From NCBI GenBank assembly GCA_963727775.1, contig CAVSHB010000004.1, positions 224,001 to 288,000 on the forward strand: DNA of 64,000 bases, given 5' to 3'. The DNA is from an uncultured Nitrospiraceae bacterium. GTDB taxonomy: Bacteria > Nitrospirota > Thermodesulfovibrionia > Thermodesulfovibrionales > SM23-35. Of the stretch, positions 5,065 through 12,173 are shown in pieces. The notes under the pieces were generated by a model. It saw only the letters and a list, made by a program, of their open reading frames with translations. It was not told the origin of the DNA and did not search any database. Positions within the stretch are counted from its first letter, which is position 1; every line of letters starts with the position of its first letter. Position numbers and translations under genes: made by a program.

Positions 5065-6004
5065 ATTTAATTATAGACAATAACTACAAAAATATCCTGT
5101 GACTTCAAAATATTTTACCGGTTTAATGTGCGTATTACTCTGGGGTGTAATATTTATCAGCACAATAAGCCTTTATCTGTATAACACTGCTTCCTTGTAG
5201 TCATCAAGCGCTAATTTTTTAATAATATTGTATATTATACTTATAATTAATCGGATAAAAAGATTGACAATGAATCTCGAGGAGACAATAAAATTAGCTT
5301 TTGAACATTATCAAGCAGGAGATTTTTTACAAGCAGAATTAGCATGTAAAAAAATATTGGAAATTCAGTCAGATAATGGTCAAATCCTTCACCTTTTAGG
5401 TTTAATATATTATGAGCGTGGAAACTATGATTTGGCTATGGATTATTTAACAGATGCACTTGTTTCTATGCCGAAAAATGAAGATTTATATTATGATATT
5501 GGCAATGTTTTTCAAGAAAAAAACCAACTTGATGAAGCTTTAACCTATTATCAAAAAGTGCTACAGTTAAATCCTGTCTATATTAACGCATACAACAACA
5601 TTGGGATTATTTATCATGACAAAGGGCAACTTGACGAAGCTATAGCTACCTATCAAAAAGCTTTGCGGATAGATGGGAATAACGATATTGTTAATAACAA
5701 TATAGGACTTGTTTTTCAGGAAAAAGGACAACTTGATGAAGCTATAATGTACTATGAAAGAGCAATAAAAAAAAATCCTTATTATGCTGTTGCTTATTAT
5801 AATATAGGTATTATCTTTTTTAGGAAAAAACAATTCGATAAAGCTCTACATTCTTTTATAAAAGTTATACAAATTGATCCCACTTTTACTGATGTATATT
5901 TTAATCTTGGTGATGTATATTTTAATCTTAGCAAGCTTGATGATGCTGTAAAATGTTATAAAAAAACAATCTCCAATAATTCAGATTACATCCCGGCCTA
6001 TCTT

Positions 6005-7387
6005 GATAGCGTAAGATCAATTCTGCAAATATGAATCAGGGTATAATTCTCAATGGAAAAAGCAATCTCTCAAAGAGAGAAAGGAGAATTATACCCATGA
6101 GAAGAATTTTATCAAAGAAGGCGAAAAAAGTCATTGAGGATGGAGTGCAGGAGTTTATGGCGATGCCCCCGTTAGCGGAGTTGACGAGGATCGGAGCGAG
6201 GATGATGTTAGAGTCGGCGATGGAAGAAGAAGTGACGGCATATCTTCAGAGAGACTATTATGAGAGGAATGCCTGCGCTAAAGGAAGCCGGAGTGGATCG
6301 AAGCCCAGAACCGTGAAGATCGGTAGCGGTGATATAGGGCTAAAGATGCCGCAGGTAAGGAATGCCGGTGGCCCATTTCATTCCCGGATATTGCCGCCAC
6401 GGATGACCCAGATGGATGAAATACAGGAAATCATCCCTCTTTTGTATATGAACGGCCTGTCCAGCAGGAAGGTAAAGAAAGCTGTGGGTAAACTCATAGG
6501 CAAGAAAGGCCTGAGCCATCAGAATGTCATAAGGATCAGCGGCAGGATCGTCGATGAGTTCAATGCATGGAAGAAGCGGGACTTATCGATGCTGCAGGTG
6601 GTGTATCTTGTTCTGGACGGCGTACGGATGGGAGTAAGGGCCGGGACCAAGGAGAAAGAGGCGGTGCTGGTGGCCTGGGCGTTTCTGGAGGACGGCAGCC
6701 GGGAGCTCGTGGGCGTGTCCCTTGGCAACAGTGAATCGTACAATGCGTGGAAAGGTTTTCTGGAGGATCTCACGAAACGGGGCATAAGTGAACCAATGCT
6801 CACGGTTATCGATGGCTGTCCCGGCCTTATCAAGGCGGTGGATGAAGTCTTCCCTGAATCAGACAAACAGCGCTGCACGAAGCACAGGACTGAAAACGTG
6901 CTGGATAAAGTACTGGAACAGGACAAGGCATCAGTAAAAGAGTCAGTAAGGAAGGTGTTTTACGCCTCGACCTATGAGCACGCAAAGGAGGCCGTGGAAA
7001 TGTTCAAGAAGAAGTGGCGCATGAAATATCCTTCGGCAGTGGAATGCCTGACTGAAAATATAGAAGACTGTCTGACCTATTACAAATATCCTTACCAGCA
7101 CTGGCTTAGAATTCGGACGACCAATATAGTGGAGAGGAGCTTCAAGGAGGTGAAGCGAAGGGTAAAGGTAGCAGGCCGGTTTCAGAAGGAGGAGCGTGCG
7201 CTCACCATGGTTTACTGGCAGCTCCACGAACTTAGATGGAACGGTGTAAGCATGACCAAGGAGGCAAAGGCAATCCTTACGAGGATCCGGGCATCAAGGA
7301 TGCAAAGGGTTGCGGCATAATCGTATCAATGAAAACCCTTGAGAATAAAGCCCTGAAGAGAATTTACAGAAAAGACTTGACACTGTC
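6005..7387 (+). mobile_element. IS256-family element, copy 2 (complete, 1383 bp)
   Basis: 8-bp target duplication CCTATCTT at 5997-6004 and 7388-7395; imperfect 26-bp terminal IRs GATAGCGTAAGATCAATTCTGCAAAT / GACAGTGTCAAGTCTTTTCTGTAAAT (rc). Confidence 0.96.
6031..7320 (+). CDS. IS256-family transposase (true start probably ATG 6097 after AAGGAG)
   Basis: LYMNGLSSRKV, YLVLDG, DGCPGL, QRC and RTTN motifs. Confidence 0.95.
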   Translation: MNQGIILNGKSNLSKRERRIIPMRRILSKKAKKVIEDGVQEFMAMPPLAELTRIGARMMLESAMEEEVTAYLQRDYYERNACAKGSRSGSKPRTVKIGSGDIGLKMPQVRNAGGPFHSRILPPRMTQMDEIQEIIPLLYMNGLSSRKVKKAVGKLIGKKGLSHQNVIRISGRIVDEFNAWKKRDLSMLQVVYLVLDGVRMGVRAGTKEKEAVLVAWAFLEDGSRELVGVSLGNSESYNAWKGFLEDLTKRGISEPMLTVIDGCPGLIKAVDEVFPESDKQRCTKHRTENVLDKVLEQDKASVKESVRKVFYASTYEHAKEAVEMFKKKWRMKYPSAVECLTENIEDCLTYYKYPYQHWLRIRTTNIVERSFKEVKRRVKVAGRFQKEERALTMVYWQLHELRWNGVSMTKEAKAILTRIRASRMQRVAA

Positions 7388-8954
7388 CCTATCTTCGATT
7401 AGGGTTGATTTTAAGTTATCAAGGGAGAAACGATGAAGCAATAAATATTTACGACCAAGTTTTGAAAATAAGGCCCAATTTTTTTAAAGCATACTATTTG
7501 CGATGCATGTCTCAACTTCCAGCCATTTATCCTGATCAATCGAGCATTCAGATTTCACGTATCAGATATCTTGAAGAACTTAATACACTACATAAGATTC
7601 TTTCTTTAGAAACCGAGCAGGATATTGAAGAAGCATCTCAAGCTATTGGCACTCAGCAACCTTTCTTTTTAGCATACCAAGGGTTAAATGATCGTGATCT
7701 GCAGCAACTATATGGTGATTTAGTTTCTAGAATTATGAAAACAAGATTTCCTCAATGGGCTTATCGACCCAATATGCCTCCAGTTTCGTCTGAAGGGCTT
7801 TTAAGGGTTGGCATAGTATCAGCCTTTTTTTGGGATCATTCCAATTGGAAGATTCCAATCAAAGGATGGGTTAAGAATTTAAATAAAAAGCATTTTGAAT
7901 TATATGGATATTATACGGGCAAATGCAAAGATAAGGAAACAGAGGACGCGAGACATTGTTTTACTCACTTTTATGAGGATATAGACTCTTTTGAAAATCT
8001 TTGCCAGATTATTTACGAGAATAATCTTCATGTTCTTATTTATCCTGAAATAGGAATGGACCCAATAACAGTAAGGCTTGCATCTTTAAGACTATCACCT
8101 GTGCAATGTACATCATGGGGACATCCTAATACATCAGGTCTCCCGACTATTGATTATTTTCTTAGCAGTGATCTGATGGAGCCCCCTTATGCTGAGCATC
8201 ATTATACTGAACAACTGGTCCGTTTACCCAATCTTTCAATATGCTACACTCCAACAGATGTTATTCCAGATGAAACAAATCGAGAAAAACTTGGACTACG
8301 TCCAAATTCGATCCTTTATCTTTGCTGTCAAGCACTTTATAAATATTTACCTCAATATGATGATATATATCCGCGTATCGCCCAACAGATTGAAGATTGT
8401 CAATTCCTTTTTATTTCCTGCCATCTCAGCAATTGGGTGACCGAGAAATTTCGTTTGAGGCTCGAAAAAGTATTCAAAATGTATAATCTCAACGCCGATG
8501 ATTATATAGTATTTCTCCCACGTCTTGATCAGGAACAATATTATGCTGTCAATCGTCTTTCTGATATATACCTGGACAGTATTGGCTGGTCAGGATGTAA
8601 CACCACCTTGGAAGCTATTGCCCATAATTTACCAATCCTGACTCTGCCCGGTAAATTAATGCGCGGAAGGCATAGCTCAGCAATTCTTAAAATGATGGGG
8701 ATATCAGATACCGTTGCCTCTGAACTTGATGAATATGTTGAAAAGGCAGTCCGTTTGGGTCTGGATAAAGAATGGCGCAAACAGATATCTGAAAAAGTTG
8801 CTGCAAAGAAGCATCTTGTTTATCGAGATAAAACCTGTATTACTGCCCTTGAGGATTTTCTTGTTGCAGTAGTACAAGAAAAGCTCAATTAAGTTATCAA
8901 TGATCTTTAACAAAAAATATCTTCCATTTTGTTGCATATTTGATCTGTTAATAT

Positions 8955-9476
8955 TCAATTTTCAGCGGGAGTCACTTGTGCCTGGTCAATATGCTGTGTA
9001 TTTAATGTTTGCCAGCGTGCGTCATGGGCAAGACGAATTGCTGCGGCTCTTGTTGGGGTACAACCAATGGTACTGGCAAGCTCTCTGTCATAAATGTTTC
9101 GATGTTCCCAGTCATCCAGCATAATAGGAGTACCACTTGGATACGAAGTCAGCAGGTTGCCAAGCCGTAAAATCCGAAGAACAAGAGCATGCATTGTCGA
9201 TACGTGAACTTGAAGTGCAGTTGTGGCACATAGTTGGTTGCTGCAGAAAGTCTGTATTCTTGAACGGAGTTCAGCGCATGCGGCACGGGTAAAGGAAATT
9301 ACATAAACATTGTCAGAATTTGCACCGTTATTAAGTAAGTCAGCTACCCTTTTTTCGATTGTATAAGTTTTACCAGTGCCTGGCCCAGCGACCAGTCGTA
9401 TCTGACGTGCGCTGTCTCTTGCTGCCACCCATTGTTGTTGCTCTGCTGCCGCTCTTTGTGTTGCTGTTATAGGCAT
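8955..9476 (-). pseudogene. UvrD/Rep-like SF1 helicase, N-terminal fragment
   Basis: RLVAGPGTGKT Walker A, ISFTRAA motif Ia and STMHAL motif Ib; stops at 173 aa, before the Walker B region. Confidence 0.75.
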
Positions 9477-9793
9477 AACAAGTCTTCTCTCTTAAGTTTT
9501 ACCTTTGGATTTCTGAGTTGTCTTTTATTCCTTGGGACTGTTAATTATACAAAGCCTTTATGCATTTTAACAGATTTAGATATTGTTAGTTTAGGAGAGA
9601 GATCTCTTGTCCCCACAGGCACGCTTGGTAAAGAGGGTTTCTTTTGAAAAGCGATAGTGCTTGCGAGATGTCAGCAATGCGGAGCTTGCTATATTGTTGT
9701 AGAGTTAGGCCTTGTTAAAGAAGGCTATACTCTTTCTTGATTCAGACCAATGTGCGAGTTGGTTAAATCCAAACCAAAGAAAGGAGTATAGCC

Positions 9794-11056
9794 ATGAAGA
9801 AGAGTAAAACAAAAAAGTTTAAAGTAGTCAATGGTAGAACGATGATTGTGACAGCTGATATGGGAAAGGATAGACATTTTGGATACTGGCGCTGTCCGGA
9901 CGGAAGCGATGTGAAGCCCTTTGCCTTCTGGAACAACGGCAGGGGTTTCCAAGAGTTCTGGGATCGTGTATCTTATGCCAAAAAGCTCCATAACATCGAA
10001 GATATTGTTTTTGGATACGAGTCCACCGGGCCGTATGCCGAACCTCTTGTTCATTTCATGCGTGCGAGAGGCGTACACATGGTACAAGTAAGCCCTATGC
10101 ACACTAAGAGGCTTAAGGAGCTTCAGGGTAATTCGCCGAACAAGACCGACCAGAAAGACCCAAAGGTTATCGCTGATATTATGGCACTTGGCCACGCCCT
10201 GACTGTAGTGATCCCGGAAGGTCCAGCGGCCGAACTCAGGAGGCTCACTCAGGCCAGGGAAAGGAGCAACGAGCGTTATGTATCCCTGGTGAACCAGCTC
10301 CAGAGCTTGCTTGCGATTATCTTTCCTGAGTTTTTGCAGGTAATGAAGGATGTAAAGACGTTGACTGCCCGATATCTCCTTGCGCAGTGCCCAGCACCCA
10401 AGGATATTGTCGCGTACGGTCTTGATAATTTGAGTGCAACGATCAATAAGGTCAGCCGCGGAAAGCTGAAGGAAGATCGCGCCAAGGCCCTCTATGAGGC
10501 TGCAACAGCTTCTATAGGTGTAACCGAAGGCATGACGAGCATTATACGTGAGATAAGAGAACTTCTTATCGCCATGGACGCTGCTGAGTCCTTTACCGGG
10601 GATCTGGAAAAGGAAATGGGGTATTATCTGAAGCAGATTCCCTACAGTGGCTCGATCCTCTCGATAAAGGGGATTAAAGAGGTTACCACTGCCGGTCTTA
10701 TCGGTGAAGTGGGTGATTTTCGGAAGTTTCAAACCCTCTCCGAGATCCTAAAGCTCGCAGGGCTGGACCTTTATGAGATCAGTTCTGGCCAATACAAGGG
10801 GAAGCGACGCATATCTAAGCGAGGCCGTCACCTGCTGCGTAAACTTTTGTACTTTGCCTCGCTCAACACAGTCCGCAGAGGTGGAATAATGCACGATCAA
10901 TATCAAAAGTACCTTGAGCGGGGCATGCCTAAGACCAAGGCGCTGATCGCCGTAGCAAGAAAACTTCTTGGAATCATATTTGCTGTTGTGCGTGACCAAA
11001 GTGTATACAAAAAAGATTTCTCTATAGTCTCACTTCAATACCAGGAGGCTGCATAA
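9794..11056 (+). CDS. IS110-family DEDD recombinase/transposase
   Basis: ADMGK, YESTG and KTDQKD (RuvC-like DEDD), SIKGI..TTA, and SSG..KGKRRISKRG (catalytic Ser region of the C-terminal Tnp domain); RBS AAGGAG upstream. Confidence 0.95.
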   Translation: MKKSKTKKFKVVNGRTMIVTADMGKDRHFGYWRCPDGSDVKPFAFWNNGRGFQEFWDRVSYAKKLHNIEDIVFGYESTGPYAEPLVHFMRARGVHMVQVSPMHTKRLKELQGNSPNKTDQKDPKVIADIMALGHALTVVIPEGPAAELRRLTQARERSNERYVSLVNQLQSLLAIIFPEFLQVMKDVKTLTARYLLAQCPAPKDIVAYGLDNLSATINKVSRGKLKEDRAKALYEAATASIGVTEGMTSIIREIRELLIAMDAAESFTGDLEKEMGYYLKQIPYSGSILSIKGIKEVTTAGLIGEVGDFRKFQTLSEILKLAGLDLYEISSGQYKGKRRISKRGRHLLRKLLYFASLNTVRRGGIMHDQYQKYLERGMPKTKALIAVARKLLGIIFAVVRDQSVYKKDFSIVSLQYQEAA

Positions 11057-11070
11057 CTTATAGTATTGGC

Positions 11071-11512
11071 GTGTAAGCGGGGAGATTACCGACCTGATAC
11101 CTAAGGCGGCTGAGCCGACCTTCATGCGGAGCTTGTAACTCCCCGCTTGCACCTTAGTCTCGATTAAGCAAGGTCAGGGCTCTGTTGAGACCCTCGAATT
11201 ACCAGTGTCAGGCAAGGTGCTACACCAAAGACTAAAGTGACTTCCTCCTAATGGAGATGGAAGTGAGAAGGTTGATATAAGGTTAAGTGAAAGGAGCCAA
11301 GAGGAGGCATAAAAAAGAGAAACGCCGAATCCAGGGGATACCGTAATATGGGTCATGCTGAGATAATCGATCCTATAGCTTTCTACGAAGCCGCTTTTTC
11401 AGAATTGGCTCTCAAACATGCAGAATGGATTACGTAATGAGACAAGGGATCTGGGGGCAAAGAACGAAGCAGAAACCATTGAAGCCAGGAAACCTTAGTA
11501 GTGGCTTGTCTC
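11071..11512 (+). ncRNA. Candidate IS110 bridge/seek-type guide RNA (multi-domain)
   Basis: Stems 11071-11089/11135-11152 (enclosing a 13x12-nt internal loop), 11154-11160/11229-11235, 11240-11264 and 11439-11446/11505-11512. No credible ORF; lies downstream of an IS110 transposase. Confidence 0.65.
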
Positions 11513-11543
11513 TATCAGAGGGGAGTTACTCCGTAAAAAGTTC

Positions 11544-11549
11544 TTGACA
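11544..11549 (+). promoter_or_regulatory. Outward-facing -35 hexamer TTGACA at the IS110 right end
   Basis: Pairs at 17-bp spacing with TATACT (9726-9731) in the predicted circle junction. Confidence 0.65.
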
Positions 11550-11737
11550 ATAATAAACCAGTAGAAGGTGGACTGAGCATGGTTAGAATATCGCCTCCCG
11601 CAAGTTAGTTCTAACAAAAATCATTCCTCCTTAAACTTCAAAGTAATTTCATCTGTTCTTCATAATGCTGTAACTTTGGAACTATATACTTTTTTACAAC
11701 TAATAAAATCCTGAAACTTTTCAACGGAGTGAAATTA

Positions 11738-11867
11738 ACAGAATGACGGAAAGATTTCGGCTTCGAGTTCATTCGGGATGGGCAGTAATTTTGAGGTATG
11801 GTTCCCTCTTAACCAAAGTTGGGAAGCCATCCGGGAAAAGGAAGTCCACCCTTCTGTTCCGATATAA
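11738..11867 (+). pseudogene. Histidine-kinase HATPase_c C-terminal remnant
   Basis: Manual translation QNDGKISASSSFGMGSNFEVWFPLNQ..* resembles the terminal GxIxxxSxxGxGSxFxxxxP motif. There is no start codon and an in-frame stop directly upstream. Confidence 0.55.
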
Positions 11868-11948
11868 CTGGGCAGAATGGCCCAAAAAAGTTTAGCAGTA
11901 TTTGAACCTGCAAAAACTTTTCTCAATCAGAAAGGAGTTTTTTAAATC

Positions 11949-12173
11949 ATGGCAAAAGAAATATTAAACACGAACGGTATTGCCTGGACACTTGCGATGT
12001 TCAAACTTGCGTCAAAGGCGGTTTCTATGCAGTCGGGCAACATCCTGGAAGTGGTCGGGACCAATCAGGCTTTTGAGAGGGACATCCGGACATGGTGCGA
12101 CAGGTTAAACAAAAAGCTCCTGTTTATTAAGAGTGAAAATGAAGACGGCAAGAGATGTCAGATACTGTTCTGA
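11949..12173 (+). CDS. TusA/SirA-like small protein lacking the CPxP cysteine
   Basis: 74 aa; LNTNG..., MQSGNILEVVG and FERDIRTWC match the TusA fold pattern; RBS AAGGAG. Confidence 0.65.
   Translation: MAKEILNTNGIAWTLAMFKLASKAVSMQSGNILEVVGTNQAFERDIRTWCDRLNKKLLFIKSENEDGKRCQILF

Follow-up and report, generated by a model that had tools for sequence, protein, structure and literature searches.

An IS110-family insertion sequence with a predicted two-loop bridge RNA and a probable IS3-family relic in its 3' end

Organization of the IS110 locus

The window, that is, the whole 64,000-nucleotide stretch of DNA from an uncultured Nitrospiraceae bacterium analyzed here, contains an IS110 unit of 1877 bp that occurs in four near-identical copies in the genome, the others each showing one internal difference from the window copy. 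The unit is bounded by a repeated AG core (9683-84 and 11560-61) around which the flanks diverge in all four copies, and flank divergence likewise places an AG core at the boundaries of its multi-copy relatives. With the cores included, its non-coding ends measure 111 nt upstream and 505 nt downstream of the gene, and the whole of the 505-nt 3' end, which runs from the transposase stop codon to the core, is common to the four copies (Table 1). A sequence-only reading of the window had described 11057..11564 as the 3' end of an IS110; this stretch does lie in the element in all four copies, except for 11562-64, which are flank. Its description of a transposase followed by a long ORF-poor stretch is borne out, as the gene ends at 11056 and the only ORF of at least 60 aa in the region is a 60-aa frame on the minus strand.

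Table 1. Features of the IS110 element and its target in the window
Feature	Position	Strand	Content or basis
Left core copy, 2 bp AG	9683..9684	+	CT on opposite strand, the IS621 core; flank divergence in four copies and multi-copy relatives
Left non-coding end	9685..9793	+	TG-extended -10 box TATATT at 9690-9695; donor loop reads first 6 nt
IS110-family DEDD recombinase, 420 aa	9794..11056	+	Motifs D22, E76, D119/D122, SG loop near 330; PF01548, PF02371
Predicted bridge RNA, target-binding domain	11075..11148	+	Outer stem; inner hairpin 11103-11122; fold and guide matching
Target-loop 5' strand	11090-11102	+	Guide 11092-11100; complementary to core with right flank
Target-loop 3' strand	11123-11134	+	Guide 11124-11131, left flank plus core
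Predicted bridge RNA, donor-binding domain	11149..11220	+	Outer stem; inner hairpin 11176-11194; fold and end matching
Donor-loop word AGCAAG	11167-11172	+	Complement of left end
Donor-loop word ACCAG	11201-11205	+	Equal to right end with core; followed by handshake base 11206
Left part of putative IS3 relic	11233..11450	+	Decayed left inverted repeat, IS3 5' leader, orfA start codon 11437-11439
Right part of putative IS3 relic	11451..11533	+	Last ~85 bp of IS3 with decayed right inverted repeat
Conserved right end	11534..11559	+	-35 box TTGACA at 11544-11549
Right core copy, AG	11560..11561	+	Flank divergence among four copies
Right target half, host DNA outside element	11562..11570	+	With 9676-9682, makes up a member of a family of dispersed genomic sites

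The recombinase combines a DEDD RuvC-like domain (PF01548, E 3.7e-23) with a Transposase_20 domain that includes the catalytic Ser (PF02371, E 3.8e-20), and its only match in the PDB is IS621 (E 1.1e-7), with which E76, D119/D122 and the SG loop align. Together with the short core at both ends, in the absence of long terminal inverted repeats, this is the organization of the IS110 family. When the ends of the element are joined on paper a predicted promoter of the form TTGACA-17-TATATT arises, and the 17-nt spacing between the two boxes is found in all 31 distinct elements with both ends parsed, the window element included. This prediction fits the junction promoters reported for IS621 (PMC11208158) and ISEc11 (PMC11187229). 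A terminator scan recovered none in the 3' region, and an Rfam scan of 9400-12000 gave three chance-level matches, all below the gathering score and none inside 11057-11564.

Immediately to the left of the insertion site lies a 173-aa ORF on the minus strand (8955-9476) comprising just the N-terminal part of a UvrD helicase domain. In the same neighborhood an IS256-family transposase (PF00872; 6031-7320) is situated between two ORFs within 5228-8892, which by eye resemble the halves of one TPR-repeat glycosyltransferase-like gene. This IS256-family element is presumably present in about 10 or more genome copies, if it is identical with the repeat beside the C2 copy of the IS110.

Fold and covariation of the bridge RNA

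To examine the 3' end we used 75 related loci recovered by protein searches of genome contigs. An alignment of 39 non-redundant relatives, which omits loci without the C-terminus, with less than 190 nt after the stop, without the donor-loop motif or nearly identical to others, and in which two rows were re-anchored by hand, supports a two-domain fold with 95.7% of cells paired and two-sided changes in 33 of the 42 pairs. None of 500 shuffles reaches the score of this fold, which also exceeds every slid control, and RNAalifold independently yielded a nearly identical structure. The RNA so delimited is confined to about 11071-11222, with two loops and modules of about 74 nt (target) and 72 nt (donor). 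The 14-nt inverted repeat 11071-84/11139-52, which the earlier reading had taken as the stem of a first domain, holds up well (z -6.65, 0/150 shuffles), covaries and is 91% paired, with its outermost 4 pairs competing with the domain-2 stem. The words TTAGTCT/AGACTAA, which it had proposed to close a second domain, are present but do not form a conserved stem: they are paired in 47.5% of cases (6 of 7 pairs testable), as against 94.2% for the covarying stem GCACCTTAGTCT/AGGCAAGGTGC (11149-11163 with 11208-11220), in which 11 of 13 pairs have changed on both sides. A covariance model of the clade scores 171 bits at 11065-11234, by construction since the window sequence is in the model; with filters off, it finds no positive-scoring match to a second bridge domain in 11226-11570 (best -2.5 bits).

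Matching of the loops to flanks and ends was evident on several counts: 1) The 5' strand of the target loop matches the right flank at 5.38 of 7 positions against 3.42 when permuted (32 distinct elements; 0/20000), taking the best of three registers for observed and permuted pairs alike. 2) Its 3' strand matches the left flank at 4.31 of 6 positions against 2.07 (29 distinct elements; 0/20000). 3) In 29 of 32 distinct elements the base that comes after the donor guide is identical to the first base of the flank (0/20000 permutations), which is the handshake pattern described in PMC11208158. 4) One word of the donor loop is complementary to the left end and another repeats the right end together with the core; these words are nearly invariant among the relatives, and hence display a match rather than covariation. 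The relatives share ancestry, so that the permutation counts for guide/flank matching overstate significance; the effect is nevertheless large. The targets of the four copies themselves match 15, 15, 14 and 16 of the 17 guide bases, the values of 15 and 16 being computed and that of the C2 copy being read off the flank comparison.

These observations support the 3' end encoding a bridge/seek-type RNA with one loop for the target and one for the donor, as the earlier reading had proposed in assigning a guide RNA to this end: the two-loop fold covaries and the target loop tracks the flanks among 29-32 distinct elements. The RNA is predicted to be of the standard two-loop type, ~150-170 nt long and located directly after the transposase stop codon.

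Comparison with characterized IS110 and IS1111 elements

The closest parallels with IS621 (PMC11208160; PMC11208158) are the DEDD plus Transposase_20 protein, an RNA with a target loop followed by a donor loop, a handshake base adjoining the donor guide and a sigma-70 promoter at the circle junction, the last being predicted in the window element. Read on the other strand, the layout of the window element would correspond to that of IS621 with its CT core. The two differ in that the window RNA lies downstream of the gene and that of IS621 upstream, and in the size of the protein (420 aa versus 326-328); moreover, the window core reads AG in the gene direction, no separate 5' stem-loop is conserved and an IS3 relic is carried. 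By module size, the window RNA is close to the CazIS110-1 bridge RNA, which is given as ~170 nt with a ~77-nt target and an 87-nt donor module (10.1101/2025.10.25.684509); the accessible part of that preprint describes no passenger, unlike the window element with its IS3 relic.

With the IS1111-group seekRNA elements ISEc11, ISKpn4 and ISPa11, as presented in PMC11187229, the window element shares a long non-coding region downstream of the gene, the order of a top-strand complement before a bottom-strand match in element orientation, and the targeting of a repeated genomic site. It lacks their 11-13 bp subterminal inverted repeat, its best perfect run being 6 bp and its best agreement 11/30 positions, and by length its 420-aa protein fits the 395-455 aa IS110 subgroup rather than that of 330-350 aa. 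The absence of long subterminal repeats and the 420-aa protein therefore argue against membership of the IS1111 group. The same source mentions IS110-type exceptions with a downstream non-coding region, and among these the window element would find its place. It agrees with the IS110 family in every feature that sequence can address, and is expected to work like IS621. Bridge RNAs are diverse (PMC11208160); 32,190 of them have been modelled according to a 2026 preprint (10.64898/2026.10.21.760802), and target mismatches are stated to be tolerated in another (10.64898/2026.08.31.748434).

The 3' end in relatives

In blastn comparisons with the 75 relatives, similarity to the window 3' end spans only about its first 180 nt and last 25-45 nt. 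Among 35 distinct elements (63 loci, with our own copies and the paralog excluded) the 3' end is 196-391 nt long with a median of 244, versus 505 nt in the window; by one and the same measure, the gap between the RNA and the conserved right-end motif ranges from 4 to 201 nt in relatives and amounts to 315 nt in the window. Different lineage-specific spacers occupy the equivalent position (spacers of L018, L034, L048 and L069; L021-L025; L037, L043-L045 and L054), some with strong hairpins and some with TTATCCACA words that we take to be DnaA-box-like. The position between bridge RNA and right end thus seems to be a tolerated landing zone. A 47%-identical paralog in the same genome (L005; C2:272832-276060) has its own bridge RNA and guides, and about 1.6 kb of other DNA interrupts its transposase.

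The target site family

In the window the IS110 target is made up of 9676-9684 and 11562-11570 once these are joined. It forms the conserved right portion of a composite site of ~55-80 bp that is dispersed in the genome. This site consists of TTTC, ~8 nt on GGAAATC, then about 20 nt and a 16-mer ending in AGGTG, often with TCGCAA after it. A degenerate 16-nt target pattern has 23 occurrences, mostly between genes, in 19 of 301 genomes versus 7 control hits. An iterated profile gave 27 matches above the reversed-sequence control in the genome itself, 2 of them inside ORFs, a soft count given that the iteration takes in its own matches. The profile matches are mostly intergenic, often 50-350 bp after a gene on the same strand, and some form pairs 238-256 bp apart; further members include C1:489988, C3:558807, C3:553441, C3:563951, C2:232221, C2:240547 and others of the genome, along with L178-L196. 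Possibly the dispersed target is the recombination site of an undescribed cassette system. We considered integron attC sites and found no support for them, as the genome has no integrase above the TIGR02249 cut-off and the hairpin energies are weak; Rfam searches over 8 target loci returned nothing except one tRNA.

Three of the four insertion sites share the same two mismatches to the 5' guide, a feature that a bridge RNA plus passenger does not account for. TAGA follows the core at three of the four filled sites (the C1:783803 and C2:300487 copies included), versus none of 19 empty non-coding sites of relatives and none of the 27 profile hits in the genome, and an empty homolog of one filled site in another genome (G398; L192) reads TAGC. 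The flank bases may have been copied from one IS copy to another. A carry-over of DNA from the right flank as the source of the shared TAGA flank found no support, the shared flanks of relatives resembling repeated targets. Likewise rejected as a guide was the invariant scaffold word beside the 3' guide: it complements the TAGA flank over 6 nt, yet is invariant across elements with other targets. As the element targets a dispersed site family, a shared flank base beyond the guide is explained.

Origin of the spacer

Between the bridge RNA and the conserved right end lies a spacer of 301 bp (11233-11533), of which ~215 bp on the left and ~85 bp on the right can be aligned with opposite ends of intact IS3 elements. 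The reference element, L083 of genome G294, is a complete 1421-bp IS3-family element with orfA (PF01527), orfB (PF00665), terminal inverted repeats and a 4-bp duplication. The spacer matches its left 260 bp in 166 of 251 columns (z 23.4, 0/300 shuffles) and its right 110 bp in 57 of 85 columns (z 10.7), as against a z of 0.6 for the middle of the IS3; the same control for the G398 sister copy described below gave 3.5 (1/300). Set against 7 left and 5 right ends of IS3, the spacer is colinear throughout its length, including the orfA start at 11437. Equivalent left ends stand before orfA in further IS3 copies, whether intact or cut by a contig end (L125, L147-L152, L165, L166). Of the 301 genomes of the order, 20 have a match to the IS3 left end; in the host's family the figure is 10 of 54. 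In a search with 11236-11530 of 401 genomes of the phylum, 12 (the own genome included, and G294 with L083 among the others) had matches at E <= 0.01, and the full-length spacer was found in only one other, G398. On this alignment, 11233-11533 is an IS3-family element from which about 1100 bp of orfA/orfB appear to have been deleted. Its resemblance to the G294 element covers the initial ~235 and final ~85 bp of the latter, with the two inverted repeats and the start of orfA; the spacer differs from that element and from MITE-like derivatives in that the terminal bases are mutated, the duplication is not visible and it is found only nested in IS110.

The G398 copy (L082; G398:C116) is a sister that shares donor domain, spacer and right end with the window copy; it is without the transposase and most of the target domain. 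Identity between the two amounts to 86/89 in the donor domain, 27/34, 79/89 and 66/79 in the left relic, and 59/88 (domain 4) and 13/22 in the right relic. The relic is hence present in two lineages of different families, with the left part 79-89% identical by segment. Its termini read TA...CG, TG having changed to TA and CA to CG identically in both copies, which suggests that insertion and decay predate their split. IS3 movement requires TG...CA ends, and an IS3-derived MITE-like element is defined by intact TG...CA termini together with a target-site duplication. With both relic ends aligned to IS3 ends no such duplication is visible around the relic; in the own genome the only 4 matches are the IS110-nested copies, with neither free copies nor a parent IS3 found.

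As to structure in the spacer, the sequence-only reading had drawn three further elements. The hairpin at 11240-11264 is present, but its fold is marginal (7/150 shuffles) and it corresponds to the decayed left IS3 inverted repeat. The third domain (~11354-11420) fails, 116 of 150 shuffles being as stable (z +0.72), and coincides with the IS3 5' leader. The words of the fourth, GAGACAAG/CTTGTCTC (11439-11512), exist, but pair at chance level (z -0.88, 32/150 shuffles), joining the orfA start with the right IS3 repeat (3' arm 11505-11512). In the sole sister, 7 of 9 predicted pairs of the hairpin and 20 of 23 of domain 3 survive, and 5 of 8 pairs of the domain-4 stem are kept, none of them changed on both sides. 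The spacer as a whole folds no better than shuffles (z -0.66 in the window and -0.23 in G398), and the entire 508-nt region is at z -1.46 (8/100 shuffles). Alignment with the IS3 left ends revealed no covariation, with a consensus energy of -5.5 kcal/mol and an unfavourable covariation term. Target or donor half-site matches in the spacer do not go beyond chance, 236 to 962 of 1000 shuffles having matches as long. The conservation and covariation among homologs by which the reading was to be judged are thus present for domains 1-2 and absent for domains 3-4.

A weaker piece of the IS3 leader occurs in two more distant IS110 relatives (L014, z 4.0; L019, z 5.1), which could mean repeated retention. 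More generally, a ~45-bp leader piece (GGGATAC...ATGGG...GAGATAATCGAT) recurs outside intact IS3 (L014, L019, L084, L086, L099, L157, L158), the settings being two other IS110 spacers, intergenic positions and the 3' end of an IS3-like element of another kind; in the window it opens, by eye, a 29-codon frame (11351-11437) that is not kept upstream. A conserved RNA motif inside the IS3 leader was considered and rejected, the alignment revealing no covariation. The first metagenome pattern had 0 matches, and a looser one 25, comprising one IS3 (L125), L130, and 23 without similarity to IS3 or the element; L130 repeats the match statistics of L082 and so is not counted as independent. In viral sequences the pattern had 2 matches, both unrelated.

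Proposed model and alternatives

At the level of sequence comparison the element ends, the AG core, the two-loop fold, the loop-to-flank matching and the IS3 origin of the spacer are established, and we consider it very probable that the locus is an IS110 insertion sequence with a standard two-loop bridge RNA and a 301-bp, internally deleted and end-mutated IS3-family passenger. An IS3-family element would have inserted between bridge RNA and right end in an ancestor. By analogy with work on IS621, ISEc11 and CazIS110-1, joining of the ends in a circle would create the TTGACA-17-TATATT promoter, from which a transcript would cross the transposase gene and then be trimmed to the bridge RNA; the target loop would pair with both target strands around the core and the donor loop with the joined ends, the handshake base aiding strand exchange, and the DEDD/Ser recombinase would insert the element. 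The passenger, at a position where unrelated DNA of 4 to 201 nt is tolerated in relatives, most likely does nothing. Weighing against this reading are the persistence of the relic in two lineages, the fairly good preservation of its left part in the G398 sister, the leader pieces in L014 and L019, the failure to find a flanking duplication, a parent IS3 or a free copy, and the two mismatches shared by three insertion sites.

That the whole ~500 nt instead forms a single long guide RNA of several domains, with additional programmable loops, is very unlikely, even though all of it lies inside the element, the stems named earlier can be drawn and one preprint (10.64898/2026.08.14.744561) reports an IS110 locus for which a number of donor-binding loops are predicted. 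Domains 3-4 are missing by blastn from all 75 protein-defined relatives, derive from IS3 ends and fold at chance level; the covariance model reaches no positive score there (best -2.5 bits), half-site matches stay within the shuffle range, and the alignment with IS3 left ends offers just -5.5 kcal/mol with an unfavourable covariation term. The larger RNA with extra guide domains envisaged by the sequence-only reading finds no support, its additional 301 bp being an apparent IS3 deletion derivative with neither a significant fold nor a bridge-model match. The spacer could also be an independently mobile MITE entering IS110 ends, in the manner of the ssr9 module beside ISPpu9, and PMC12288879 describes such modular IS110 passengers; the spacer ends are IS3 inverted repeats, and a further, separate short derivative made of IS3 left and right parts occurs in another genome (L155). 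Yet both terminal dinucleotides are altered identically in the window copy and the G398 sister, and the genome offers only the 4 IS110 copies and no parent IS3; this is the least probable of the readings, and the spacer as a currently mobile unit finds no support. Cargo-expanded IS110 elements (10.64898/2026.08.14.744561) and ISPpu9/ssr9 (PMC12288879) share with the window the presence of extra DNA between IS110 ends, and differ in that the window cargo is a small non-coding IS relic with no sign of its own mobility. A search by title and abstract start found no paper on an IS3 or MITE relic within an IS110 end; the clade may be listed in supplements.

A role for the relic after its capture would have 11378-11386 and 11418-11425 act as a second, imperfect target loop favouring TAGA sites, or the relic serve in RNA processing or stability. 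Taken in guide order, the two words lie 40 nt apart and together agree with a TAGA-type target in 13 of 17 bases; they are unchanged in the G398 sister, and TAGA is found at 3/4 filled sites versus 0/19 and 0/27 of the empty ones and profile hits. Such co-option is nonetheless very unlikely: 132 of 2000 shuffles reach 13/17, on which count we regard domain 3 as a second target loop as unsupported, the canonical loop matches better (15/17), the invariant scaffold is absent from the relic region, most letters of the words are inherited from the IS3 leader, and the G398 sister copy sits at a TATC-type flank. The specific version in which the captured relic is an accessory part of the bridge RNA, with 11378-11425 as second target loop and one element reading two target variants, is less likely again; if true, it would explain three of four insertions at TAGA sites that mismatch the canonical guide at two bases.

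Implications

The passenger interpretation is of modest importance. It contributes a well-delimited IS110 clade whose bridge RNA lies 3' of the gene, with 35 distinct natural guide pairs and their matched flanks, and this clade could supply recombinase orthologs. Were the second loop real, it would be a case of a guide RNA gaining a target loop through capture of foreign DNA. The dispersed ~55-80-bp site addressed by the guide may pose the more open problem. For the family at large, the locus advises caution, in that a lengthy non-coding end of an IS110 can stem from a nested transposon relic rather than from a longer guide.
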